NCBI GenBank assembly: GCA_013375475.1
Contig: JABXKD010000019.1
Coordinates: forward strand, 1 to 47,854
Direction: 5' to 3'
From: Promethearchaeota archaeon
GTDB lineage: Archaea; Asgardarchaeota; Lokiarchaeia; Sigyniarchaeales; SOKP01
DNA length: 47,854 nucleotides
Shown: positions 4,972-39,060 of the stretch, in pieces
How positions within the stretch are numbered: the first letter of the stretch is position 1
How the letters are laid out: each line of letters starts with the position of its first letter
The notes under the pieces: generated by a model
The model's database searches: none
What the model was told of the DNA's origin: nothing
Seen by the model: only the letters and a program-made list of their open reading frames with translations
Program-made: the position numbers and the translations under genes

Positions 4972-5454
4972 TTACCAAAATGCCTGTTCCATTTTTTTTA
5001 TGGGATCATCTAAAGAATCTTCAATTTCTTTGTCGAAATTTGAAAACATAGATATCTCGTTATCCCAATTGTCTATAGCTTCCTTTGAGTATAGAGTAAA
5101 AAATTTATCCATTACATTTCTTAATTCTTGAAGCACTTTTTTAGGTTTAATTTTTTTGTCAGAATTAGCAATAAAGATAAAATGAGCTCGTTTTAGGATA
5201 GTAAAGCGCATATCACTTAGCTCAAAATTAGATAATCCCCCTGTTGTAATCTCTTCAGCAAAGGAATTTAGTGCAGTCAATAAAGCGCCAAAAAGTTGTT
5301 CATCTAAGATTTTTTCGTAAACTCTACTAAAAACAACTAATCCTCCCTCAGATACAATCCACATATCTCGTAAAATTTTATTTGAAACCAAAGACTTCAC
5401 TTGAAGGTTTTTTGATTTAATTGAAAGCCAACTATATTTATTATCTTCTATCAA
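4972..5454 (-). CDS. Longin/Roadblock-like small domain protein; true start probably near 5391-5400
   Basis: Pattern WIVSEGGLVVFSR...DEQLFGALLTALNSFAEEI...FELSDMRFTIL..FIFIAN fits the beta-beta-alpha-beta-beta-beta-alpha longin-like proteins common in Asgard archaea. Confidence 0.65.
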   Translation of the reverse strand: MIEDNKYSWLSIKSKNLQVKSLVSNKILRDMWIVSEGGLVVFSRVYEKILDEQLFGALLTALNSFAEEITTGGLSNFELSDMRFTILKRAHFIFIANSDKKIKPKKVLQELRNVMDKFFTLYSKEAIDNWDNEISMFSNFDKEIEDSLDDPIKKMEQAFW

Positions 5455-9668: not shown

Positions 9669-10064
9669 TTATACTTTTGTACCACAATGGGCACAAAACA
9701 TTGCGTCTTTATTTAATAAAGCTTCTCCACAAAATGAACAGAAGTTTTGCTGTGGTGTTTTATTCTCTTCAAAATGATCACCAGCATTGCTATCGCTTTT
9801 ATACATTAATTGCGTGTTATTTTGAATTTGATTTGAAGTTTGGACATTTCTGGTTGAACTTAGAGTAATTTGTGAGCGACAATGAATACAACGACTAGGA
9901 GCTTTTTTAAAATATACGATCCCATATACGATAAGACCAATTCCTCCCGTGAATATTATTAAAATAATTATTAGCGCCCAGTTTACAGCTTCTCTTACTA
10001 ATAATACATTTTGTTTGCAGAACGGACAATATCCTACTGTGTTATTTGTAGACATGTTCATCAT
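9669..10064 (-). CDS. Membrane-associated zinc-ribbon protein (LITAF-like N-terminal domain plus C-terminal zinc ribbon)
   Basis: CPFC - hydrophobic hairpin - CIHC, then a Q/N-rich linker, then CSFC...CAHC. Confidence 0.75.
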   Translation of the reverse strand: MMNMSTNNTVGYCPFCKQNVLLVREAVNWALIIILIIFTGGIGLIVYGIVYFKKAPSRCIHCRSQITLSSTRNVQTSNQIQNNTQLMYKSDSNAGDHFEENKTPQQNFCSFCGEALLNKDAMFCAHCGTKV

Positions 10065-15491: not shown

Positions 15492-16319
15492 TTGGCTAAA
15501 AAAAAGAAAAAAACCGAAACTACTAAGGATTCTGAGAAGGAAGAAGAAACTATTTCCGAAGAAGAATTAAGGAGAGATTTTGAGAAAGAATTCGAAGAAG
15601 ATTTTGAAGATGAGTTAGATTTAGAAGAAGAACTTGAGTTACTCGATACCGAAGATATGGACACTGAAGTTGGAGATATCGATAAATTAGTCGACAAAGA
15701 CGAAGAAAAAAAGCAAATGTATCTAAGTTGTGGTATCCATATAGGAACCAAATTGTTATCTGGAGATGCTAGAAGATTTATTTATAGGCAGACAAATTAC
15801 GGATTATATGTTATTGATTTAACTCAAACTGATAAACGACTTATGACTGCTGCAAAATTTCTAAGTAAATACGTAGAAGAAGGGAGCGATAAGGTAATAG
15901 TATCATCAGTTAGAAGATACGGTAAAGAACCAGTAAAACAATTTTGTAAAGTATTAGGATGTAGAGCAATTACCGAACGATTTATTCCAGGGTCTCTTAC
16001 CAATCCTATAATAGATGATTACATTAAAGATGCTTCTGTAGTAGTTATCGTTGATCCTCACGCAGATAAAGTAATTTTAAGAGAAGCAAAATTAGCCCGG
16101 ATTCCCGTAGTGTCTCTATTTGATACTGACGATATCCTGGATGGCATCGACCTCGCGATACCCGCAAACAATAGAGGTAAAAAAGCATTAGGATTAGCTT
16201 TCTGGTTACTCGCAAGACAAATTTTGCTAGAATTAGGTAAAATTTCAAGCGAAGACGATTTTCCATACACATTGGATGAATTTACCTCTAATATCGTTCC
16301 GGTTTATCGTCAAGAGTAA
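15492..16319 (+). CDS. rps2: 30S ribosomal protein S2 (uS2) with a long acidic N-terminal extension
   Basis: GIHIGT, GLYVIDL, RFIPGSLTNP, DP, DTD and IPANNRG motifs of archaeal/eukaryotic uS2. Confidence 0.96.
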   Translation: MAKKKKKTETTKDSEKEEETISEEELRRDFEKEFEEDFEDELDLEEELELLDTEDMDTEVGDIDKLVDKDEEKKQMYLSCGIHIGTKLLSGDARRFIYRQTNYGLYVIDLTQTDKRLMTAAKFLSKYVEEGSDKVIVSSVRRYGKEPVKQFCKVLGCRAITERFIPGSLTNPIIDDYIKDASVVVIVDPHADKVILREAKLARIPVVSLFDTDDILDGIDLAIPANNRGKKALGLAFWLLARQILLELGKISSEDDFPYTLDEFTSNIVPVYRQE

Positions 16320-16489: not shown

Positions 16490-17266
16490 ATGAAAAAAAT
16501 AATAGCTTTTGCTGGAAAAGGAGGAGTTGGTAAAACTACAAGCTTAGTTCTTTTTTTAAAATATATCCTTGATAAGAAAAAAGCCCAAGATATCCTTGTT
16601 ATTGATTCAGACCCGGATGCGAACGTTGCTGATGTAATTGGGGAAGAGGTTAAATTTTGTGACACTATAGGGGGAAAAATGAAAGTTTTGAAAGATAAAA
16701 TTCAAAGTCTGAAAATGTCGCCTAACACGCCCAAAAGTCAGTTGATTGAATCGGATGTGTATAATTGCTTAATAGAAATGGACGATTTCGACCTTTTAGA
16801 GATGGGAAGGCAAGAGGGAGAAGGTTGCTATTGTTTTATTAATGATGTCCTCAAGAAAGTAATTGATACTCTTTCTAAGAACTATGACTTAACGTTATTA
16901 GATTCTCCTGCTGGTTTGGAGCATTTTGCTCGTAAAACTGGTCGTGATGTCACTGACCTTGTAATTGTATCCGACGCTTCAAAAATGGGTATTCACACTA
17001 TGAAACGAATTTTAGAAATAATAGACGAGTTAACACTGAAGTTCGAGCGTATCTGGATATTAGGTAATCGTTTTCCCGAGAATTTAAAGGAAATTTTAAA
17101 AAATGAAGTTGAAAATCTGAAAAATGATAGGGTTAAACTACTAGGATTCATTTCTAACAACGAGGAGATAAGCAAGATCAATATAACCGGGGGAAATTTA
17201 ATTGACTTACCTGAAGGAAATTTGTCCTATCAAGAAGCAAAAGAGATTTTTGCAAAAATAATATAA
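16490..17266 (+). CDS. cooC: CooC/AcsF-like nickel-insertion ATPase
   Basis: GKGGVGKTT, DSDPDAN, EGEGCYC (CxC) and AGLEHFAR motifs. Confidence 0.85.
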   Translation: MKKIIAFAGKGGVGKTTSLVLFLKYILDKKKAQDILVIDSDPDANVADVIGEEVKFCDTIGGKMKVLKDKIQSLKMSPNTPKSQLIESDVYNCLIEMDDFDLLEMGRQEGEGCYCFINDVLKKVIDTLSKNYDLTLLDSPAGLEHFARKTGRDVTDLVIVSDASKMGIHTMKRILEIIDELTLKFERIWILGNRFPENLKEILKNEVENLKNDRVKLLGFISNNEEISKINITGGNLIDLPEGNLSYQEAKEIFAKII

Positions 17267-17267
17267 G

Positions 17268-17936
17268 CTAGAAAAAATCATCGATTTTTTTCTTTTGAGA
17301 CGTGTAGCGCTTCTCTACTCCATTTTTCATTCCTGGAAGATCAAAGCATTTATCGGGAATCATACTTTTAAAATAACGAGAGTTTTCTCTTTCTACAATA
17401 TTTTGAGAATTGTAAAGTGACTCGAAAATTTCTTCGCCAGAAAATTGAATGTTGTCGAAATATGGGACAACTGGGCGCTCTTTACTTACTTTTTCAACAG
17501 TTTCCTTAAGAGGAAGCTTAACTTCTCGAATGTTCCCTTTTTCATTGATTATTCCAGTTCTTTGATTATGTTCGTTATAAAGACAAATTATGCACTGTGG
17601 CCATCTCTCATGAAAATATTTCAATACATTATCCATTACATGATGTTTGAGTAAGACTATTCCATATAATACAGCATGTTTATTTATTTCTGTTCGCGTA
17701 AATTGTTTAGCTCGATAAGCCTCAGTATTTACTTCCCTCATCATTTTTATAATTTTCTTTGCCATGGCTGTTCCTGAGTTTCGCAAAGATACTTCTGGTA
17801 TTGTCATGACTTGTTTTAGTAAATCTAGATGGAACTTGGAGTGTCGGGGAAGATTGGCGATCAATTCCTCCCTAGAATAGCCTTTTGCTCGTCCTACTAC
17901 TTTTAGTGAATCTTCACAATTATTTTCATTTTTCAT
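17268..17936 (-). CDS. DUF4130-family probable DNA metabolism protein
   Basis: EV..EAYRAKQFTR, HHV...YFHERWP and LYNSQNIVERENSR motifs; directly downstream of the radical SAM gene, the usual partner. Confidence 0.8.
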   Translation of the reverse strand: MKNENNCEDSLKVVGRAKGYSREELIANLPRHSKFHLDLLKQVMTIPEVSLRNSGTAMAKKIIKMMREVNTEAYRAKQFTRTEINKHAVLYGIVLLKHHVMDNVLKYFHERWPQCIICLYNEHNQRTGIINEKGNIREVKLPLKETVEKVSKERPVVPYFDNIQFSGEEIFESLYNSQNIVERENSRYFKSMIPDKCFDLPGMKNGVEKRYTSQKKKIDDFF

Positions 17937-17948
17937 ACATTAACCTCT

Positions 17949-19241
17949 CTAATTCATAAAATTCTGGATTGTAGTTTGATTATATCCATTTATTTTAAGG
18001 TATGGATCAGCACGTTTCAATATAACGCCAATTGATTTAAGGTCTTGCCGACGGTTAAGAGATATTTTTTGTTTCCTCAGATTAATAATTCTTTTTGCAG
18101 ATATTGGACCTATACCAGGCACTCTGATTAAATCTTGGTACGACGCAGTATTGGGGTCTACAGGGCCGCGATCTTTAAAGTAATCTTTCGCTAGGTGTAT
18201 TTTTGGATCACCCCTCGGTAAATTTCCCTCTTCATTAATAACTTCTTTCAAATCGTTTAATTTGTAGTGATAAATTCTTAATAGCCAATCAGTTTGATAC
18301 AATCGATGTTCTCTTTCTAAAGGAGCTGCTTGTTTTGCTGACAAAGGAGTTCCTTGTATTGGGATAAATGAGGAAAAATATGCGCGTCTTAAATCAATAA
18401 CCTTATAATCGTTATCGATCCTCTTAAGCAAATCCCAATCTGTTTCATGTTCAGCTGCTCCTATAACAAATTGTGTAGTTTGTCCGCTGTTGAGAATTGG
18501 AGCACCATCCCAACGAAATTTCTTATATCCATCTTCTCTGCGATCTTTTATCATCTTTTCTTGGAATTTTATCTCCTTATCCTGTTTTAGATCTTTCATG
18601 ATTTTTAAGGCTTCATCGTTATGTCTAATACGAATCTGCTTTAGCCATCTTTGGCGTAAAATAATATCATTATGAAAATCTTTTTGTTCTGCAATTTCAG
18701 CAAGATGTTCCTTGGTAGAGGCTTCTGAATTTATTGAAATCCGATCAGAGAGGGTTATAGCTTCTTTCAAAAGAGATTGGCTCACCCCAGGTAGCGCTTT
18801 AAAGTGAACATATCCTTGAAACTTATACTTAAACCTTAATAGCCGAATAGCTTCAAGCATATCCTCTGTGGTATCATCAGCGCTCCCACATACTCCTGAT
18901 GAGATAAAAACACCTTCAACTACGTTCATTGAATATAATTTCATGAATGTGCGAGCATATTCTTCGGGAGTAAAACTGAGTCTTTTTTTACAGTTATGAG
19001 AAAAGCAGTATTTACAACTATAAATACATTTATTAGTATAGAGGGTTTTAAATAAACTCATACAACGACCATCGGGCGTATAACTATGACAAATACCTGC
19101 ACTAGCTGTATTACCTATAAAATCCTTGGAATCTCCAAAGAGTTTTGGATATTTATCCGTACGGCTAGATGCCGTGCTAGCACATATATCATATTTAGAA
19201 TTTTCTCCTAAAATCCTGATTTTCTCTAAAGTAGACGGCAA
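17949..19241 (-). CDS. Putative DNA modification/repair radical SAM protein with C-terminal helix-hairpin-helix
   Basis: KYDICAS, GICHSYTPDGRC, CIYSCKYC, GQTTQ, REHRLYQ-DWLLR-Y, VPGIG; GAGGAG precedes the TTG start. Confidence 0.93.
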   Translation of the reverse strand: MPSTLEKIRILGENSKYDICASTASSRTDKYPKLFGDSKDFIGNTASAGICHSYTPDGRCMSLFKTLYTNKCIYSCKYCFSHNCKKRLSFTPEEYARTFMKLYSMNVVEGVFISSGVCGSADDTTEDMLEAIRLLRFKYKFQGYVHFKALPGVSQSLLKEAITLSDRISINSEASTKEHLAEIAEQKDFHNDIILRQRWLKQIRIRHNDEALKIMKDLKQDKEIKFQEKMIKDRREDGYKKFRWDGAPILNSGQTTQFVIGAAEHETDWDLLKRIDNDYKVIDLRRAYFSSFIPIQGTPLSAKQAAPLEREHRLYQTDWLLRIYHYKLNDLKEVINEEGNLPRGDPKIHLAKDYFKDRGPVDPNTASYQDLIRVPGIGPISAKRIINLRKQKISLNRRQDLKSIGVILKRADPYLKINGYNQTTIQNFMN

Positions 19242-19432
19242 TTTACTCCTCGAAATTTACATTATGTTAATATCTGCTATGATATCACTTGAAAATTAAT
19301 TTATAAATAGGGAGTCTAAAATAAATTATAGTTTATGAATATTTTAATAAAAAGAAAAAAATACCTTCTTGAATTAATATTTAAAATTATCGAAGGGAAA
19401 CATTTTTTAGTCTAATTTTTTGTTTTCTAGGT

Positions 19433-19819
19433 ATGAATACCTCCTTTAATAATGATGATGATAGTTTTGATGATGAAGATGGTGATGATGATTTTGATAA
19501 TGAAGATGGTGATTCTGACAATGAATTTGATGGAGTCAAAGATTCAGATGAGGATGGATTCAGTGATGCTTACGAAGAATTCATAGGATCAGATCCTCAG
19601 GATCCAACGGATTTACCTTTTTATCCCTATGAAGATCTCACAGAAACTTATCCAAAAAAAATAAAAACTAAAACAATGCCTACTGCTGGAGAGAAAAATC
19701 AACAACCAATAAGACTTGCGAGAAGTAGTCCAACTAGAAATAAATGCTTGATCTTTCTAATTATATTCATGGTCTTCTTAATTTTGACTCCCTTCCTTTT
19801 TTTTATTATCCTTTCTTAA
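19433..19819 (+). CDS. Acidic protein with a Ca-binding-like DxDxDG repeat and a C-terminal TM anchor
   Basis: Asp-rich N-terminus, DSDEDGFSDAYEEFIGSDPQDP, hydrophobic last ~23 residues. Confidence 0.7.
   Translation: MNTSFNNDDDSFDDEDGDDDFDNEDGDSDNEFDGVKDSDEDGFSDAYEEFIGSDPQDPTDLPFYPYEDLTETYPKKIKTKTMPTAGEKNQQPIRLARSSPTRNKCLIFLIIFMVFLILTPFLFFIILS
19465..19518 (+). repeat. Two-copy 27-bp imperfect tandem repeat (FDxEDGDxD)
   Basis: ttttgatgatgaagatggtgatgatga / ttttgataatgaagatggtgattctga. Confidence 0.8.
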
Positions 19820-22973: not shown

Positions 22974-24500
22974 TTATTTATAGATCGCGTAATTTTCTTC
23001 TAAGTCTTTTCTAAGGTTTTTTGAAAGATTATATTTTTTCGCATAAAGCTCAAAAATAATGATATCTATTGATTTCTGTTCCTCAGTATAATCGTAAGAT
23101 AAATTGTTTTTTTTATTTTCAATTATCTTTTTAACCAATGAACTTACTTCATCGTGGGTACTTCTATCGGGTTTAATAAAAGGTAAAGAGTGTATTCCAG
23201 TTAGTTGAATGCTATTAGTGTTGTTTAAAATGCCTTTTGAAAGATAATTATATAATGAACTATTCAATAATCCCAAAAAATAATCAATTGAGATTGAACT
23301 GTCCTGAACGATAAATCCCATTGCTTTATTAGAATCCCAATAGCAACCCTCAGGCATATAACGTGCAGCTAATCTCGAACTAATCCCGCTTATAACTATC
23401 CCTTCCTCTCCAAAAGGAACAGATTTGGGAATATCGTATATTGAGATTGAGTCTTGTTCCCAATCTAAAGCTTCCATAATAGGTCTATGATATTGTTCCC
23501 CGCCACCTCTTTTTAAATAAGGTTTCCATCTTTTTTTTTCCAGTTCAAGGCGAGTAATTACTTTAAAATTCTCACTTTTTTTTTCCAATTTGCGTTTCTT
23601 TCTAAAAATACCAGAAAGTTCAGTGTTTTCAATCGCAGCTATGAACTTTTTATTATTATGAGTGTGCATACCGATGTAACCCTTTAGAAAAAGCTCTAGT
23701 TTAGGTGCATTTTCGAATAAATCTAAAATTTGTTCTTCAGCGTTTACGAAAAATATGTTAAAAGGAAGTGCCTTATACCTTTTTTGTTTAATCTCAATTA
23801 TTACGGGAGGGTTCCAATACTCTTTCTCACTTTTAATACGAGGGATAATTTTCATCAGATTATTATCTCGGACTTGCTCATTTTCCTCTTTAGAACATTT
23901 AGTAAGAAAAAATATTACAGGGTATGTGCTAACATTTTGTCTATCAAACAAATTAATTGGAGCAAGTAATATTTCATTTATTATACAGTTTTTAAGAATA
24001 AAGCTTCTTAATTTAGAATGAGTGCTCAATGTTAAAAAAGAATCACTTGTAATGAAACCTAATTTCCCGCCCTCTTTCAAACGCCAGATACTATTTACTA
24101 TAAACATTGAATATGTTTCATGAGCATTGATCTTTCCATAAATTTGTTTTAGTTTAGCTCTATTTTTCCTCACATAACTGCTTGCCTTATTTAAATATGG
24201 AGGATTTCCAACGATAAAATCATATTCTCCATAACATTCTGAATTAAACGAGAGCAAAGTATCTATAAACTTGAATTTTACACCTAAATCTTTAATATTA
24301 ACTTTATAGTTCGAGTTTACGTCATGACAGAAGATTTGTGTTTTATCAACACCAGCCTTTAATAAAGACTTAACAAAAACTCCAGGACCTACACACGGAT
24401 CTAATACTTTTTGATTATCTGAAATATTTCCCAATTTGGACACTATGTAATCTGCGGTTATAGGGGGTGTTAAGACCACGCCTAGTTCCTTTACGTTCAA
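22974..24500 (-). CDS. N6-adenine DNA methyltransferase (gamma class, TaqI/Eco57I-like) with C-terminal target-recognition region
   Basis: GVVLTP (motif X), LDPCVGPG (motif I), VGNPPY (motif IV), YFLGLLNS. Confidence 0.88.
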   Translation of the reverse strand: MNVKELGVVLTPPITADYIVSKLGNISDNQKVLDPCVGPGVFVKSLLKAGVDKTQIFCHDVNSNYKVNIKDLGVKFKFIDTLLSFNSECYGEYDFIVGNPPYLNKASSYVRKNRAKLKQIYGKINAHETYSMFIVNSIWRLKEGGKLGFITSDSFLTLSTHSKLRSFILKNCIINEILLAPINLFDRQNVSTYPVIFFLTKCSKEENEQVRDNNLMKIIPRIKSEKEYWNPPVIIEIKQKRYKALPFNIFFVNAEEQILDLFENAPKLELFLKGYIGMHTHNNKKFIAAIENTELSGIFRKKRKLEKKSENFKVITRLELEKKRWKPYLKRGGGEQYHRPIMEALDWEQDSISIYDIPKSVPFGEEGIVISGISSRLAARYMPEGCYWDSNKAMGFIVQDSSISIDYFLGLLNSSLYNYLSKGILNNTNSIQLTGIHSLPFIKPDRSTHDEVSSLVKKIIENKKNNLSYDYTEEQKSIDIIIFELYAKKYNLSKNLRKDLEENYAIYK

Positions 24501-34477: not shown

Positions 34478-35881
34478 TTGAGTTCTATGGAAAACCTACA
34501 TAAGACTTTTGATGTTATTGTTGTTGGTGCAGGGACAGGAGGTAGTGTTGCTGCCCGGTTTGCCGCAGAAAAAGGATTAAAAGTTTGCCTTATTGACAGT
34601 AAGGATAAAAAAGAAATAGGTAACAAAATCTGTGGGGATGCGGTTGGTAATGATATTTTTGATTTTCTTAAGATTAAGCATCCGAAAGGCAATGAACTTT
34701 CCTGCAAAATCAAAGGTGCCAAGCTATACACTCCCGATTTAAAAAAATGCATTGATCTCACTGATCCAAAACAAGCTGGTTATATTGTTAATAGGATTGA
34801 ATTTGGTCAAAGATTACTAAACGAAGCATTAGATGCTGGTGTGGATCAATTTATTGATAATACAATGGCTTTAGATTTATTATATAACCAAAATACGGTT
34901 TCTGGAGTAAAAGTAAAGCTATATAATGGTGAAAAAGCGAATTTACGGTCTAAAGTTTTAATTGATGCATCTGGGTTTTATTCTCCCCTAAGAAAGAAAG
35001 TAAAGAGCAATTTAGTAGAGAAAAAGGTATTAAAGGAAGATAGTATTCTTTGCTACAGAGAAATCGTGAAGTTTTCACCTCAGGATTTAAGAATTAATAA
35101 CCCCAATTACATATCAATAATTCTTAATCGAGAAAAAGCACCAGGGGGCTATATATGGTATTTTCCGAAAAATGAATCGTCCCTTAATATTGGTCTTGGA
35201 ACATTTATGAATCTTAAGGGCAAGGTAAAAGACTTATACCATCAATATGTCTTTAATGAATTCATTAAAACCTCGAAATACGAAATTATTTCTTCTGGTG
35301 GAGGTGTTGTGTCTGTTAGACGACCCCTCTGGTCGTGCACTGACAATGGAATCATGTTTGTAGGAGATGCTGCTTGCCAAGTTAATCCACTTCATGGAGG
35401 AGGCATTGATCCTTCGATGAGGGGAGGTTTTTTTGCTGCCAATACAGTTGTAGATGCGATTGAAAAGGGAGATTATTCTGTTAATTCGTTATGGAATTAT
35501 AATTATGATGTCATGACTAGTTTTGGAGCAGAATTTGCTTCACTAGACTTGCTAAGGATGACTCTCCAAATACTTCCTAATGAAGATTTAAATTTTGCGC
35601 TACAACAAGATTTATTGAGTGGTGAGGAAATACTAGAAATCTCCTCAACTGGAGAATTTGAATTACCCGTAATTAGCTTGGTAACTAAAGCGTTAAAAGG
35701 AATTTCTAAGCCAAATCTTTTGTTGGATTTAAATTTCTTGCGAATTCGGATGAACGAAATATCAAAACTATACAAAAATTTTCCAACAAAAATTGAAAAT
35801 TTTGAAGATTGGAAAATGCGGGTTATTCAAGTATATGATAAAATTAAGAAAATGTTAATAAATGCTAAAAAAGTAAAATAA
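34478..35881 (+). CDS. Geranylgeranyl reductase (digeranylgeranylglycerophospholipid reductase family)
   Basis: VGAGTGG, KICGDA, PGGYIWYFP, VGDAA.QVNPLHGGGI. Confidence 0.9.
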   Translation: MSSMENLHKTFDVIVVGAGTGGSVAARFAAEKGLKVCLIDSKDKKEIGNKICGDAVGNDIFDFLKIKHPKGNELSCKIKGAKLYTPDLKKCIDLTDPKQAGYIVNRIEFGQRLLNEALDAGVDQFIDNTMALDLLYNQNTVSGVKVKLYNGEKANLRSKVLIDASGFYSPLRKKVKSNLVEKKVLKEDSILCYREIVKFSPQDLRINNPNYISIILNREKAPGGYIWYFPKNESSLNIGLGTFMNLKGKVKDLYHQYVFNEFIKTSKYEIISSGGGVVSVRRPLWSCTDNGIMFVGDAACQVNPLHGGGIDPSMRGGFFAANTVVDAIEKGDYSVNSLWNYNYDVMTSFGAEFASLDLLRMTLQILPNEDLNFALQQDLLSGEEILEISSTGEFELPVISLVTKALKGISKPNLLLDLNFLRIRMNEISKLYKNFPTKIENFEDWKMRVIQVYDKIKKMLINAKKVK

Positions 35882-35890
35882 TTATATTAA

Positions 35891-36718
35891 GTGAATTTTA
35901 TGGTTGATACATTGATAAGTGACACTTGTAAGGCAACTACCTACGATTTTTTAATTAATAAGATAAATCGTGATGGAACCCTCCATTTTTCCTTGATTGA
36001 TCCAGATCCTACCAAACAAAATCCCTCCAAAGCAGGAAAAATGGCGCTTTATGCAGAGCAAGCAGGAACTGACGCTATTTTAATTGGTGGAAGTACAGTT
36101 TTTGATCAAAATTTCGTCGATGAGACAGTACTCGCAATAAGAGAAAACGTCGATCTCCCAATCATAATTTTTCCCGGAGGCGTGGCTAATGTTTCAAAAC
36201 ACGCAGATGCAATTTTATTCATGTCCATCTTAAATTCGGAAGATCCGTATTTTATTATAGGTCAGCAAGCGATAGCTTCATACACGGTTAAACTATCTAA
36301 CCTTGAAATTATCTCAACGGGATATTTGATAATAGAGCCAGGAGGTACCGCAGGTTGGATAAGTAAAGCGAAACTCCTCCCAAGAAGTAAACCAAAATTA
36401 ACTGCTGCTTACGCTTTAGCTGCGGAGTACTTTGGATTCAAATTTATATATTTAGAAGCTGGTTCCGGTAGTGAAAGGATCCCTGCTAAAATTATTAGTC
36501 TTAGTTCAAATCTTTTGAGTATTCCAATAATTGTGGGTGGAGGAGTGAGTTCTAAAGAAGATGCTCGAAGTTTTGTTGAAGCAGGAGCAGATGTCGTAGT
36601 AATGGGGACATTTTTAGAAAATCAGGTTTTAAAGGACAACGGGAATTCTCTAAAAACGATTATTGACGAAATAAAGGATGCTGGGAAAGAACACAAGAAA
36701 AGTTACTGTTTGAAATAA
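35891..36718 (+). CDS. Geranylgeranylglyceryl phosphate (GGGP) synthase, group II
   Basis: LIDPD, IGGS, FPG, LNS, GYLIIE, YLEAGSG, VGGG motifs. Confidence 0.93.
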   Translation: MNFMVDTLISDTCKATTYDFLINKINRDGTLHFSLIDPDPTKQNPSKAGKMALYAEQAGTDAILIGGSTVFDQNFVDETVLAIRENVDLPIIIFPGGVANVSKHADAILFMSILNSEDPYFIIGQQAIASYTVKLSNLEIISTGYLIIEPGGTAGWISKAKLLPRSKPKLTAAYALAAEYFGFKFIYLEAGSGSERIPAKIISLSSNLLSIPIIVGGGVSSKEDARSFVEAGADVVVMGTFLENQVLKDNGNSLKTIIDEIKDAGKEHKKSYCLK

Positions 36719-36739
36719 AAAAAATTCTAATTTTTAAAT

Positions 36740-37612
36740 ATGAAATTTAAAGACGCTATTGAAATAACACGCCCTATTAATTGCTTAATGGGAGCTATTT
36801 CTGTAATTATAGGATTATTAAACACCCGTTTAGATGTTTCCTGGGAGAGACTCGTCATTAATATTATATTAGGTGTATTAACATATATTTTAATCGCAGC
36901 CTCCGGTATGGTTATTAACGATATTTACGATATAGAAATAGATAAAATTAACAGACCAGAACGCCCTATTCCAAGAGGTTCAATAACTTTAAAGCAAGCA
37001 AAATTACTATATATTCTTTATCTTTGTTGTGGTATATTTCTCTGTATTTTAAACACCATTATCTTTAATCTTAGTCTACTGAATTTTATATTAGCTTCGT
37101 TTTTCGGATTTATTGGATGGGTATATGCTAAATGGGGCAAAAAAAGCGGATTTTTCGGGAATCTTGCTGTGGGCATCTCTTTTTCGATAGGTCTAGTATA
37201 TGGCGCATTATTAAATAGCATACTTATTCCACCATACATTTGGTTTTTCTTTATTACAGCATTTTCCCTTTTAATGGCTCGAGAAATTATTAAAGGTTGC
37301 GAAGATATTGAAGGAGATAAAAAACAAGGAGTTAAGACTTTAGCTATTAAGATTGGAATTAAAAACTCAAGAAATATCGCGTTAATCTTTTCGTTAATAG
37401 CCATTACTTTCTTTGTGTTACCTCTTCTAACTAATATTCTCAATCCATGGCTTTTTGTTATCTTTATGATTTTAGGTCTAATAGAAGTAACTTATACTGT
37501 TGTACTAATGCTCACCTCTAAATTAGAAAGAGGAGATTTAAAAAAAATCAGTTTATATCTAAAAATAGGAATGTTTATTGGTCTAATAGCTTTCTTGTTC
37601 GCAAGTCTGTAG
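36740..37612 (+). CDS. Digeranylgeranylglyceryl phosphate (DGGGP) synthase, UbiA family
   Basis: RP.N, NDIYDIEIDKINRPERPIPRG, REIIKGCEDIEGD; directly follows GGGP synthase. Confidence 0.92.
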   Translation: MKFKDAIEITRPINCLMGAISVIIGLLNTRLDVSWERLVINIILGVLTYILIAASGMVINDIYDIEIDKINRPERPIPRGSITLKQAKLLYILYLCCGIFLCILNTIIFNLSLLNFILASFFGFIGWVYAKWGKKSGFFGNLAVGISFSIGLVYGALLNSILIPPYIWFFFITAFSLLMAREIIKGCEDIEGDKKQGVKTLAIKIGIKNSRNIALIFSLIAITFFVLPLLTNILNPWLFVIFMILGLIEVTYTVVLMLTSKLERGDLKKISLYLKIGMFIGLIAFLFASL

Positions 37613-37632: not shown

Positions 37633-39060
37633 TTAACTTTTAAACTGTTTGATAAATTTAAAGATTTTTTCAATTTCGTTGGTTTTTATAAAAGATTTTA
37701 ACTTTTCCTTATTTTCTTCCTTAAGTTCATGTGGAAATGTCTCAATTAAGCCCCTTACTTGAGTTAATCCCAAGAATTTTCTCGTATAGTCTGCCTTAGA
37801 GTATTTATATGTAGTTAGAAATTCGCTATCTAATTTCTCTCTAAAATATTCTAAAATTGTATTAAAAAAGTTCCTTAAGAGAAGTTGATCCTCATATGTA
37901 AGCTCAGGTTCAAGAAAAATCTGAATGGGATGAGTTCGATAAGTATTTCCTGAAACATATATTCCATCAACTCCAAAATGTTCCTTAATAATACCTAATC
38001 CGGCTCTTCCATCAATAGAACCAGTATCAACAGTTCGAGCGTAAAGAATATTATTCATTAACTTTCCTTTCAATGCGTCACTTACTCTAATAATCTGAAT
38101 TCGATATTGATTATTCTCGTACTTATTAGCATCAATTACTTTAATCTCAAAGGAACCGAAGTTATTAAGTACTTCCTCTTTTTGCAGGTAATATTTTACT
38201 TTTAGAGGATTACGAGTACTGTTTTCTTCAATAAATTCATCGAATTCAGAACCAGCACGATATTTGTATTTTGGTTTTAAATTATACTCTCTCTTAACAA
38301 ATTTGTTTTTATCCTTAAATTTTAAACCCTCAAAAGTTTGAGGTTCGTCTTTTGAAATTGCTTTTCTTTTAAAAAAACTTATGCATATGTTTGTACCGGT
38401 AAATTTAAACATAGAAGTTTCAAATATGGTAATTTTATTAATTTTATAATGCTTTAAAAAATCTAATCGAAATTTATTGGAAACAGAAGCGCCATATAAG
38501 AAATTGGTTGGAATAACATAGATTAAATTCTCAACATCGTTGCGTAAGTCATTAATCATCGCAATTTGGTATAAATCTTGGTATCCTTCATTTCTACTTT
38601 CAAAATAGCTCAAATACTTTTGAGTTTCATTATGCTTCCTAATATAACCCAAGTAGAGGTAAGGTGGATTAGTAATGTGAAATATGGGGTATTTTTGATG
38701 TTTTAGAATCTGTGGAAAGTTTTCTAGATTATCCCGTATTTTAATATTCCGTTCTGCAGTTTCTTTTGGAATTCCATATTTTCTTGCATTTTTAATACAC
38801 TCTTGAACCATATCTTTTTGGACATCAAATAAATAAATATGATTATGAAAAAAAGATTCTCGCTGATCTACCGGAATTTCATTTAGAATTGGTAGAATTA
38901 AATTACCTTCACCAGCATAGAGATCGACCCATAAATAATTTTCCAAGAAATCCTTAATTTCGGGAAAAATATACCTATAAAACATATCAATAGAAGTAAA
39001 ATGTAGACCAAATTTTCGCCTCTTCGCTTTTTCATTAGGAATTAAAGATTTTTTTTCCAT
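37633..39060 (-). CDS. Probable N6-adenine DNA methyltransferase (divergent, orphan)
   Basis: GLHFT (motif X), VDLYAGEGNL (motif I), ITNPPY (motif IV), DLYQ, YVIP.NF. Confidence 0.78.
   Translation of the reverse strand: MEKKSLIPNEKAKRRKFGLHFTSIDMFYRYIFPEIKDFLENYLWVDLYAGEGNLILPILNEIPVDQRESFFHNHIYLFDVQKDMVQECIKNARKYGIPKETAERNIKIRDNLENFPQILKHQKYPIFHITNPPYLYLGYIRKHNETQKYLSYFESRNEGYQDLYQIAMINDLRNDVENLIYVIPTNFLYGASVSNKFRLDFLKHYKINKITIFETSMFKFTGTNICISFFKRKAISKDEPQTFEGLKFKDKNKFVKREYNLKPKYKYRAGSEFDEFIEENSTRNPLKVKYYLQKEEVLNNFGSFEIKVIDANKYENNQYRIQIIRVSDALKGKLMNNILYARTVDTGSIDGRAGLGIIKEHFGVDGIYVSGNTYRTHPIQIFLEPELTYEDQLLLRNFFNTILEYFREKLDSEFLTTYKYSKADYTRKFLGLTQVRGLIETFPHELKEENKEKLKSFIKTNEIEKIFKFIKQFKS

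Follow-up and report, generated by a model that had tools for sequence, protein, structure and literature searches.

Clamp-binding-like C-terminal motifs suggest sliding-clamp tethering of an archaeal radical SAM–DUF4130 pair

Introduction

The locus described here raises the question whether a radical S-adenosylmethionine (SAM) enzyme may be brought to its DNA by the sliding clamp. It lies in a 47,854-nucleotide stretch of the Promethearchaeota archaeon assembly GCA_013375475.1 (contig JABXKD010000019.1), hereafter called the window, and comprises a gene for a radical SAM protein with a helix-hairpin-helix (HhH) domain, termed rSAM in the following, and a gene for a DUF4130 protein. An earlier sequence-only reading of this pair had pointed to tails resembling the PCNA-interacting protein (PIP) box in both proteins and had proposed that both subunits load onto the clamp. 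We consider it reasonably probable that the pair encodes a two-subunit radical SAM DNA enzyme which is tethered to the clamp and recruited by C-terminal motifs matching the clamp of the respective host. In this archaeon, tethering is likely to proceed mainly through DUF4130; that both subunits bind PCNA is doubtful.

The TIGR03916/DUF4130(/UdgX) system spans many bacterial and archaeal phyla. Bacterial proteins with a clamp-binding motif include PolC, DnaE, Pol IV/V, Hda, MutS and others. The reaction of the TIGR03916/DUF4130 system is described as still undetermined in the parts used here of a 2026 preprint (bioRxiv 10.64898/2026.08.19.745780), and likewise in those of an earlier paper (PMC3765255).

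C-terminal motifs and their conservation in archaea

Rereading of the sequence confirmed both tails, their coordinates, the 12-bp gap between the genes and the AGAGGT site within it (Table 1). The rSAM protein ends in QTTIQNFM, followed by a single asparagine (N430) and the stop codon, and the DUF4130 protein ends in KKKIDDFF at its extreme C-terminus. The sequence-only reading had called the latter tail, QKKKIDDFF, PIP-like; its hydrophobic-xx-FF core stands, but the Q lies one residue outside the PIP register, so that positions 1 to 8 read K-K-K-I-D-D-F-F. DUF4130 thus deviates from the PIP box by being without Q at position 1, and rSAM by a Met at position 8. To judge from their sequences, both tails are degenerate PIP-like motifs.

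The loose form of the motif, [ILM]xx[FY][FYLI] no more than two residues from the C-terminus, was found in three of the 44 window open reading frames (ORFs) of at least 120 amino acids, namely DUF4130, GlnA and IlvD (expected 0.019 per protein), and the Q-anchored form in one, rSAM itself (expected 0.0007 per protein). Taken as a single sequence, the loose tail motif is not beyond chance, and the evidential weight therefore rests on the conservation of the tails.

This conservation is pronounced among close homologs. A C-terminal [ILM]xx[FY][FLI..] was present in 119 of the 120 best DUF4130 homologs (63–92% identical) and formed the very end of the protein in 101, the sole miss being a fragment on an 820-bp contig. 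Likewise, 118 of the 120 best rSAM homologs (79–95% identical) carry Qxx[ILM]xx[FY]x, and in the remaining two the protein stops exactly at position 7; another 12–13 residues follow the motif in 82 of the 118.

For the wider comparison, genomes were scanned with a 50-sequence rSAM alignment (A2), and the best 80 of more than 600 matches were considered. According to record titles, these comprise 28 Asgard, 7 unclassified archaeal, 9 DPANN/Altiarchaeales, 29 euryarchaeal-type (Methanothrix and other Methanosarcinales, Thermoplasmata and Methanomassiliicoccales, Methanofastidiosa, and one metagenome-assembled genome (MAG) of Halobacteria) and 7 bacteria-labelled loci. Promethearchaeum syntrophicum MK-D1 (L038) and Lokiarchaeum ossiferum (L032) are among the carriers of the pair. 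Domain labels were taken solely from the titles of these 80 genome loci and of 12 plasmids, while 150 cluster representatives that were also compared carry no taxonomy.

Non-Asgard DUF4130 proteins are 17–31% identical to the window protein, and two columns of their alignment (A3) are invariant. The motif [ILM]xx[FWY] occurs within the last 14 amino acids in 59 of 67 complete archaeal DUF4130 proteins as opposed to none of four bacterial ones, and in several of the eight archaeal misses it is located farther from the end. Examples are ..NATLEDFLGEG in Methanothrix, ..TKTLDEYL in Methanofastidiosa and ..CCKLSEFF in Woesearchaeota, each directly followed by the stop. The logo of 54 non-identical tails reads N-K-[TK]-[LI]-[DN]-[DE]-[FY]-[LIF], and this agreement extends to positions that did not serve for anchoring: position 6 is acidic in 43 of the 54 tails, and position 8 is hydrophobic in 46 of 50.

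In rSAM, [ILM]xx[FWY] is present within the last 22 amino acids of 68 of the 71 complete archaeal proteins. Counted from the ..NG that ends the HhH domain, the fixed register xx-[QDYH]-xx-L-xx-[FWY] was observed in 53 of 56 archaea-labelled but only one of 19 bacteria-labelled rows. This single row (L083) stems from a contig of a 'Sulfurovum' MAG, on which a gene for the archaeal/eukaryotic-type RNA polymerase subunit Rpb5/RpoH was found (91.5 bits) and no DUF4130 ORF was detected downstream of rSAM. Given the archaeal polymerase gene and the archaeal-type rSAM tail, the contig is probably misbinned.

Both proteins thus have tails that are conserved among Asgards and across archaeal phyla, the point on which the sequence-only reading had staked itself, and they combine a motif at the extreme C-terminus with conservation among orthologs, as would be expected of archaeal-type PIP clients. 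It could be argued that the tails have no function and reflect chance or composition in an AT-rich genome whose proteins are rich in K, N, I and F, given that the window has 32% G+C and that the loose motif ends three of 44 ORFs. However, the motif is kept in lineages of other composition, for example as NATLEDFL and WRDTTLEMW in Methanothrix, and its register is fixed despite the 17–31% identity. This explanation is contradicted by the conservation, and we consider it highly improbable.

A comparator from the same lineage is provided by the archaeal nuclease XPF. A gene of the XPF/ERCC4 type, a short-form Asgard nuclease, adjoins the pair in one of the loci (L037, 4735–5481, minus strand), and its product ends in ..IQKKLDDILNE. 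Within the last 12 residues of Asgard XPF proteins (a set including P0392–P0511), Q[KR][KR][ILM] is found in 118 of 121 and K[KR][ILM][NDE][DEQ] in 105 of 121; typical ends are ..SPQKKINDEY and ..VQKKIDDI. The corresponding KK[ILM][NDE][DE] is present in 99 of 120 DUF4130 proteins, and the Asgard XPF consensus QKK[IL][ND][DE]x[YF] closely resembles the DUF4130 consensus NKK[IL][ND][DE][FY][FL]. On this sequence basis, the Asgard XPF tail could be used as a PIP consensus specific to the lineage. According to the part of the study drawn on here, crenarchaeal XPF depends on PCNA as an essential cofactor, and the Sulfolobus enzyme, which requires PCNA, binds to it via its last six residues (PMC2836553). 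Because of this and of the matching Asgard XPF tails, the DUF4130 tail can be said to resemble that of a family with proven archaeal PCNA clients. XPF and the pair have in common a short C-terminal motif after a DNA-binding module of the HhH type; their folds and chemistry are unrelated, a nuclease as opposed to a radical SAM enzyme, and the Asgard XPF tails are themselves only presumed to bind PCNA.

A survey of 77 confirmed PCNA motifs, as far as the portion consulted goes, reports that 34% are without Q and 43% without one aromatic residue, that archaeal PIPs are all found at the very C-terminus, and that affinity is raised by basic flanks (PMC6881253). By analogy, this survey supports calling such degenerate tails PIPs.

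Bacterial orthologs and the beta-clamp motif

Bacterial orthologs were obtained by a tblastn search of rSAM against plasmids, which returned 164 bacterial records with 33–40% identity; 12 of these, from 12 genera and four phyla, were taken. All 12 named proteins contain QL[SAQ]L[FLIW], 11 of them within the last eight residues and after a variable linker, so that the search for beta-clamp motifs in bacterial orthologs that had been proposed together with the sequence-only reading turned out positive for rSAM. Four proteins end in QLSLF, one in QLSLFDSA, one each in QLALF, QLSLI, QLSLL and QLALL, and two in QLQLL, while Gemmatirosa rSAM has an internal QLSLW. The published beta-clamp consensus is QL[S/D]LF or QxxLF and is C-terminal in PolC too, according to the section used (PMC12309361), and by its sequence the bacterial rSAM tail is a match to this motif. 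The named bacterial orthologs thereby share a C-terminal QL[S/D]LF-type pentapeptide with bacterial clamp clients, whereas no such pentapeptide is present at or near the C-terminus of the two window proteins, which is what their archaeal origin would lead one to expect. Both classes of tail recurred among the 150 cluster representatives, many of which have degenerate QLxL[FWL] or QLxLxL ends outside the regular expression used.

On the side of the partner, the 12 plasmid loci carry a standalone DUF4130 in three cases and a fusion of DUF4130 with a uracil-DNA glycosylase (UDG; 'UdgX family') in eight, and in Gemmatirosa the partner is not adjacent. Phaeobacter, Azospirillum and Caulobacter are examples of bacteria with the operon. 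A clamp-like end was found on DUF4130 or DUF4130-UDG partners in none of four bacterial genome loci and was not seen by eye in six plasmid partners. The linkage to a UDG gene, which the sequence-only reading had described as usual, is therefore borne out by the eight bacterial fusions and not by archaea, where no UDG gene was found among 150 flanking ORFs of 23 loci (from 197 candidate ORFs and 30 picked loci). That no glycosylase is adjacent in the window itself holds true: neither UDG nor PCNA gave a Pfam match in 43 of the 45 window ORFs of at least 120 amino acids, the other two being antisense within longer ORFs.

The tail comparison thus indicates that the clamp-type motif resides on rSAM in bacteria, and that in archaea rSAM has lost the linker and the beta-clamp motif while DUF4130 has gained a PIP-like extension. 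What appears to be archaea-specific in the rSAM sequence is the aromatic position 7 together with the truncation directly after it; the number of residues following position 7 has a median of two in archaea and 18 in bacteria.

Two trees were calculated without the tail columns, one with FastTree from 194 rows (six fragment rows omitted) and one by an IQ-TREE quick search of 68 hand-picked rows. All archaeal rSAM rows, together with some unnamed representatives, form one clade with a support of 93 (FastTree) and 95 (IQ-TREE). The bacterial rSAMs fall outside this clade, and the nearest ones, from Calditrichales and Negativicutes, have beta-clamp-like tails. Many independent switches of the motif, which had been considered as well, were rejected on account of this single archaeal clade.

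A possible reading of these data is that both subunits bear functional PIP boxes and that the heterodimer sits on two protomers of the PCNA trimer. It would agree with the conservation of both tails across archaeal phyla, with the early end of archaeal rSAM, from which the bacterial linker and beta-clamp motif are missing, and with the large share of confirmed PIPs that do without one aromatic residue. The features of the rSAM tail that speak against it (a variable position 8, a motif abutting the HhH fold, and bacterial counterparts of Q and L that co-occur with a beta-clamp motif) are taken up below. We regard this reading as doubtful. The earlier reading is partly supported, by the conservation of both tails and by the beta-clamp motif of bacterial rSAM; its proposal that both subunits sit on PCNA is called into question by the same rSAM features and by the lack of a clamp motif in bacterial DUF4130 proteins.

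As a separate observation, several bacterial-type rSAM representatives have long C-terminal extensions (P0289, P0296, P0320 and P0332, as well as P0293, P0326, P0333, P0358 and P0362). One group of extended proteins is Cys-rich with CxxC-type motifs, and another shares a ..YPGQ[KQ]GK.. block ending in CR.

Structure and complex models

The AlphaFold2 (AF2) model of rSAM has a mean predicted local distance difference test (pLDDT) score of 88.2 and a predicted template modelling score of 0.86. Its last 10 residues average 71, compared with 92–97 before them, and include a short helix at 425–429. The DUF4130 model (mean pLDDT 84.8) has a core of at least 90, last 12 residues with values of 58–59, and a helical turn at 218–221. 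According to this model, the DUF4130 tail behaves as expected of a flexible short linear motif.

In a fold search, rSAM matched generic radical SAM barrels, HydE being best (E 5.7e-7), followed by LIAS, PFL-AE, ThiH, BioB and viperin. DUF4130 gave weak DHH/RecJ-type matches, the best with E 0.024 and none at or below 0.001, in agreement with the weak DHH-like similarity mentioned in the part cited of the recent preprint (bioRxiv 10.64898/2026.08.19.745780). A sequence search of the PDB found no solved structure of either family, and a search of the ESM Atlas gave solely DUF4130 clusters and no model.

Residues 183–222 of DUF4130, supplied as an alignment, were modelled together with the Swiss-Prot entry PCNA_PYRFU. 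Three runs scored 0.53, 0.75 and 0.51 (median 0.53), with a contact agreement of at least 46% and a partner pLDDT of at least 41; the controls gave 0.00, 0.01 and 0.00, with 0.00 for the one in which an unrelated protein took the place of PCNA. Of 157 solved complexes, 116 pass the mark applied to such scores, as do two of 215 mismatched pairs; those that pass with a score of up to 0.60 comprise just 18 of the 157 solved complexes plus both passing mismatches. The modelling that had been suggested for the pair was thereby realised for the DUF4130 tail and a Pyrococcus stand-in, with a median well above the best control and a verdict of 'weak support'.

These models also bear on the explanation that the tails are not clamp motifs at all and instead dock inside the complex, the rSAM tail on DUF4130 or vice versa, or bind another partner shared by archaea, so that their likeness to PIPs would be superficial. 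The moderately ordered rSAM tail would fit such a role, as would the frequency of loose [ILM]xx[FY][FYLI] C-termini in the window; the published AlphaFold 3 (AF3) model of a bacterial pair has a large interface of 3,666 square angstroms, as stated in the cited part of the preprint (bioRxiv 10.64898/2026.08.19.745780), and a single phylogenetic switch is compatible with a co-evolving internal contact. However, the equivalent end of the bacterial orthologs carries a textbook beta-clamp motif, and the DUF4130 tail is flexible and of low confidence in the monomer model, resembles the Asgard XPF tail, and scores with PCNA but not with the unrelated protein, which gives weak support. Taken together, we consider internal docking or another partner improbable.

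Two further features of the rSAM model concern the body of the protein and not its tail. Asgard rSAMs contain a K/E-rich helical insertion, and since most non-Asgard homologs are without it, many representatives match the rSAM query in two stretches. Residues 24–47, which are length-variable in A2 and lead from the conserved K[YF]D.C helix at the N-terminus to the barrel, form the sole segment of the model with a pLDDT below 50.

Discussion

While the families, the operon, the conservation of the motifs and their domain-matched swap are observations, we infer clamp binding, the identity of the binding subunit and the chemistry. The two genes would encode a two-subunit radical SAM enzyme acting on DNA, in which the rSAM subunit would contribute [4Fe-4S]/SAM chemistry and DNA binding by its ComEA-like HhH domain, and DUF4130 would be a non-catalytic nucleic-acid-binding subunit. 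Formation of the heterodimer is presumed and, for one bacterial pair, supported by the published AF3 model. In bacteria, the QLSLF-type motif at the end of rSAM would recruit the enzyme to the beta clamp. In archaea, the motif N-K-[KT]-[IL]-[DN]-[DE]-[FY]-[FLI] on the flexible, archaea-specific extension of DUF4130 would recruit it to PCNA, and a second, weaker contact may come from the archaeal rSAM tail, [QD]xx[L]xx[FWY]. Held by PCNA at a gap or primer-template junction, the enzyme might act on a lesion or base in DNA, reversing or modifying it by means of the 5'-deoxyadenosyl radical. The bacterial operon is linked to SOS and mutasome genes, as stated in the part considered of PMC3765255, and this linkage, together with that to UdgX-type UDGs, suggests lesion processing at stalled forks in bacteria.

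A number of points weigh against this reading. Neither tail has all four key positions of the canonical PIP box Qxx[LIMV]xx[FY][FY]. Particularly for rSAM, position 8 is variable among the 118 close homologs (I in 37, T in 33 and F in 31) and is I, S or Q across archaea, while 27 of the 29 euryarchaeal-type sequences have D, Y or H instead of Q at position 1. The rSAM motif begins two residues past the last strand of the fold, and its tail, in the model, is not clearly disordered. Six bacterial-type representatives (P0252, P0264, P0271, P0310, P0313 and P0315) have QGx[LIF]xx[LVF] straight after ..NG plus a beta-clamp motif downstream; given these counterparts, the archaeal rSAM motif may owe its Q and L to ancestry and to a structural role. 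The archaeal rows form one clade, so that the tail motifs were in essence swapped a single time and then retained. Among the 150 flanking ORFs of the 23 archaeal loci, neither replication nor PCNA genes were found to accompany the pair. With regard to the complex model, the PCNA used is a Pyrococcus stand-in and not that of the host, and the score, with its 'weak' verdict, comes without an interface or contacts; because PIP-PCNA complexes are among the solved structures, the pass may reflect likeness and not binding. Finally, the taxon labels are titles of MAG records, one of which is demonstrably wrong.

The favoured reading of a clamp-tethered enzyme can be compared with known systems, first of all with the bacterial operon of TIGR03916 and TIGR03915/DUF4130. 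Both share the rSAM family, the order of rSAM followed by DUF4130, the CxxxCxxC motif and a C-terminal HhH domain. In contrast to its bacterial counterpart, the archaeal DUF4130 is shorter, with about 77 N-terminal model positions absent, falls below the TIGR03915 cut-off, has no UDG found nearby and carries a PIP-like extension. Archaeal rSAM has neither linker nor QLSLF, its end being [QD]xxLxx[FWY], and the K/E-rich insertion of the Asgard proteins is a further difference from the bacterial system.

A second comparison is that with spore photoproduct lyase (SPL). To our knowledge, no radical SAM enzyme of DNA repair other than its representative SplB has been characterised, and we know of no DUF4130 partner or clamp motif in SPL. 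It has in common with the pair a radical SAM chemistry that is aimed at DNA. The TIGR03916 family is called 'SplB-like' in the part used of PMC3765255. For the window rSAM this membership is unsupported: an NCBIfam scan at E 0.001 gave no SPL model, and no SPL was among the fold-search matches considered (up to rank 50, some ranks omitted).

The families themselves are already known and annotated; the archaeal form, with a short DUF4130, no UDG and PIP-like tails, represents one of their variants. Clamp motifs that match each domain of life in the rSAM-DUF4130 family, as suggested by the sequences, are apparently new, with no report found in the literature searched; in that literature, which leaves most subscription journals outside its coverage, no paper ties the TIGR03916 family or any radical SAM enzyme to a clamp-binding motif. 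If clamp tethering is true, it would tell where and when the enzyme acts, namely on clamp-loaded DNA at forks, gaps and repair patches, and radical SAM chemistry would join the list of clamp clients. It would also make the function of the system open to cheap and decisive experiments. A much bolder view, which we put forward only tentatively and hold to be rather unlikely as a whole, is that the widespread and very old rSAM-DUF4130 enzyme is perhaps the first radical SAM sliding-clamp client in both Bacteria and Archaea, that the tether was re-invented for each clamp, as QLSLF on rSAM in bacteria and as PIP-like tails in archaea, and that the archaeal heterodimer, with a PIP on either subunit, straddles two PCNA protomers and performs radical chemistry on DNA at forks and repair gaps.

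Locus, family assignment and genomic neighbourhood

The assignment of both window proteins rests on profile searches. The rSAM protein scores 347.6 bits with NCBIfam TIGR03916 (cut-off 343.5), which covers model positions 3–382 of 415, and 45.2 bits with Pfam HHH_3 (cut-off 27), while Pfam Radical_SAM gave 29.0 bits, slightly below its cut-off of 29.5. The NCBIfam scan at E 0.001 matched TIGR03916 and a ComEA domain and nothing else, and in the PDB sequence search the HhH domain hit the ComEA-related entry 2duy (8.4e-9). Orthologs in the 50-sequence alignment share the start MPSTLEKIR with the window protein. The partner scores 43.0 bits with Pfam DUF4130 (PF13566; cut-off 27) but stays at 36.8 bits with NCBIfam TIGR03915, under the cut-off of 112.25, and covers positions 78–235 of the 243 of this model, the N-terminal 77 or so being absent. 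To judge from this match, it is a short archaeal variant of TIGR03915.

In 74 of the 80 related loci, rSAM is followed by a DUF4130 gene in the same orientation, as it is in the window (Table 1). No conserved neighbour beyond the pair itself was found in the scan of flanking ORFs, and repair genes near the pair are sporadic: besides the XPF gene of L037, HhH-GPD and DNA_alkylation genes were seen in L048 and an XPD-like gene in L041.

Table 1. Positions, in window coordinates, of the gene pair, its motifs and neighbouring features
Feature	Position	Strand	Remarks
rSAM gene	17949..19241	-	430 amino acids; TTG start; C-terminus ..NGYNQTTIQNFMN, then stop
DUF4130 gene	17268..17936	-	222 amino acids; C-terminus ..TSQKKKIDDFF, then stop; short archaeal form without UDG domain
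rSAM/DUF4130 spacer	17937..17948	-	12 bp; coding strand AGAGGTTAATGT
AGAGGT ribosome-binding site in spacer	17943-17948	-	Putative; read from sequence
GAGGAG Shine-Dalgarno-like site	19246..19251	-	Putative; 4 nt 5' of rSAM TTG start
CxxxCxxC radical SAM cluster motif	19005..19028	-	C72/C76/C79; columns invariant in A2
ComEA-like HhH DNA-binding domain	18030..18164	-	rSAM residues 360-404; Pfam HHH_3 1e-11
rSAM PIP-like motif QTTIQNFM	17955..17978	-	Residues 422-429
DUF4130 PIP-like motif KKKIDDFF	17271..17294	-	Residues 215-222
K/E-rich helical insertion of rSAM	18492-18629		Residues ~205-250; helices 189-218 and 222-232; pLDDT 68-77
Low-pLDDT segment of rSAM	19100-19172		Residues 24-47
A/T-rich TATA-like element	19300-19309		TATTTATAAA (coding strand); ~60 nt 5' of rSAM start; possible archaeal promoter
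D/E-rich protein gene	19433-19819	+	128 amino acids; TSP3-like repeat; hydrophobic C-terminus; just upstream of rSAM promoter region
ParA/MinD-like ATPase gene	16490-17266	+	Convergent with DUF4130; 1 nt separates the stop codons
Ribosomal protein S2 gene	15492-16319	+	Strongly acidic N-terminal extension of ~75 amino acids
N6 DNA methyltransferase gene	22974-24500	-	Eco57I/TaqI-like
Second N6_Mtase-like protein gene	37633-39060	-	Weak match
Archaeal lipid genes	34478-37612		GGGP synthase, UbiA-family prenyltransferase, geranylgeranyl reductase
Longin-like protein gene	4972-5454	-	Fuz_longin_1 E 1.8e-5; 25.4 bits, cut-off 26.1
C1-like zinc finger protein gene	9669-10064	-	26.3 bits, cut-off 26.5

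Among the neighbours, the ParA/MinD-like ATPase gene adjoins DUF4130 also in L007, L016, L024, L028 and L040, and its synteny with the pair, together with that of the ribosomal protein S2 gene, is confined to close Asgards. The synteny of the Eco57I/TaqI-like methyltransferase gene with the pair extends to L007, L028 and L040; no restriction endonuclease was detected beside the N6 methyltransferase genes of the window. The lipid genes listed in Table 1 mark the stretch as archaeal, and the names borne by the best homologs point to an Asgard genome of the Promethearchaeota/Lokiarchaeia type. The longin-like and C1-like zinc finger proteins, whose scores fall just short of the respective cut-offs, are candidate eukaryote-like signature proteins and consistent with the Asgard origin of the stretch.

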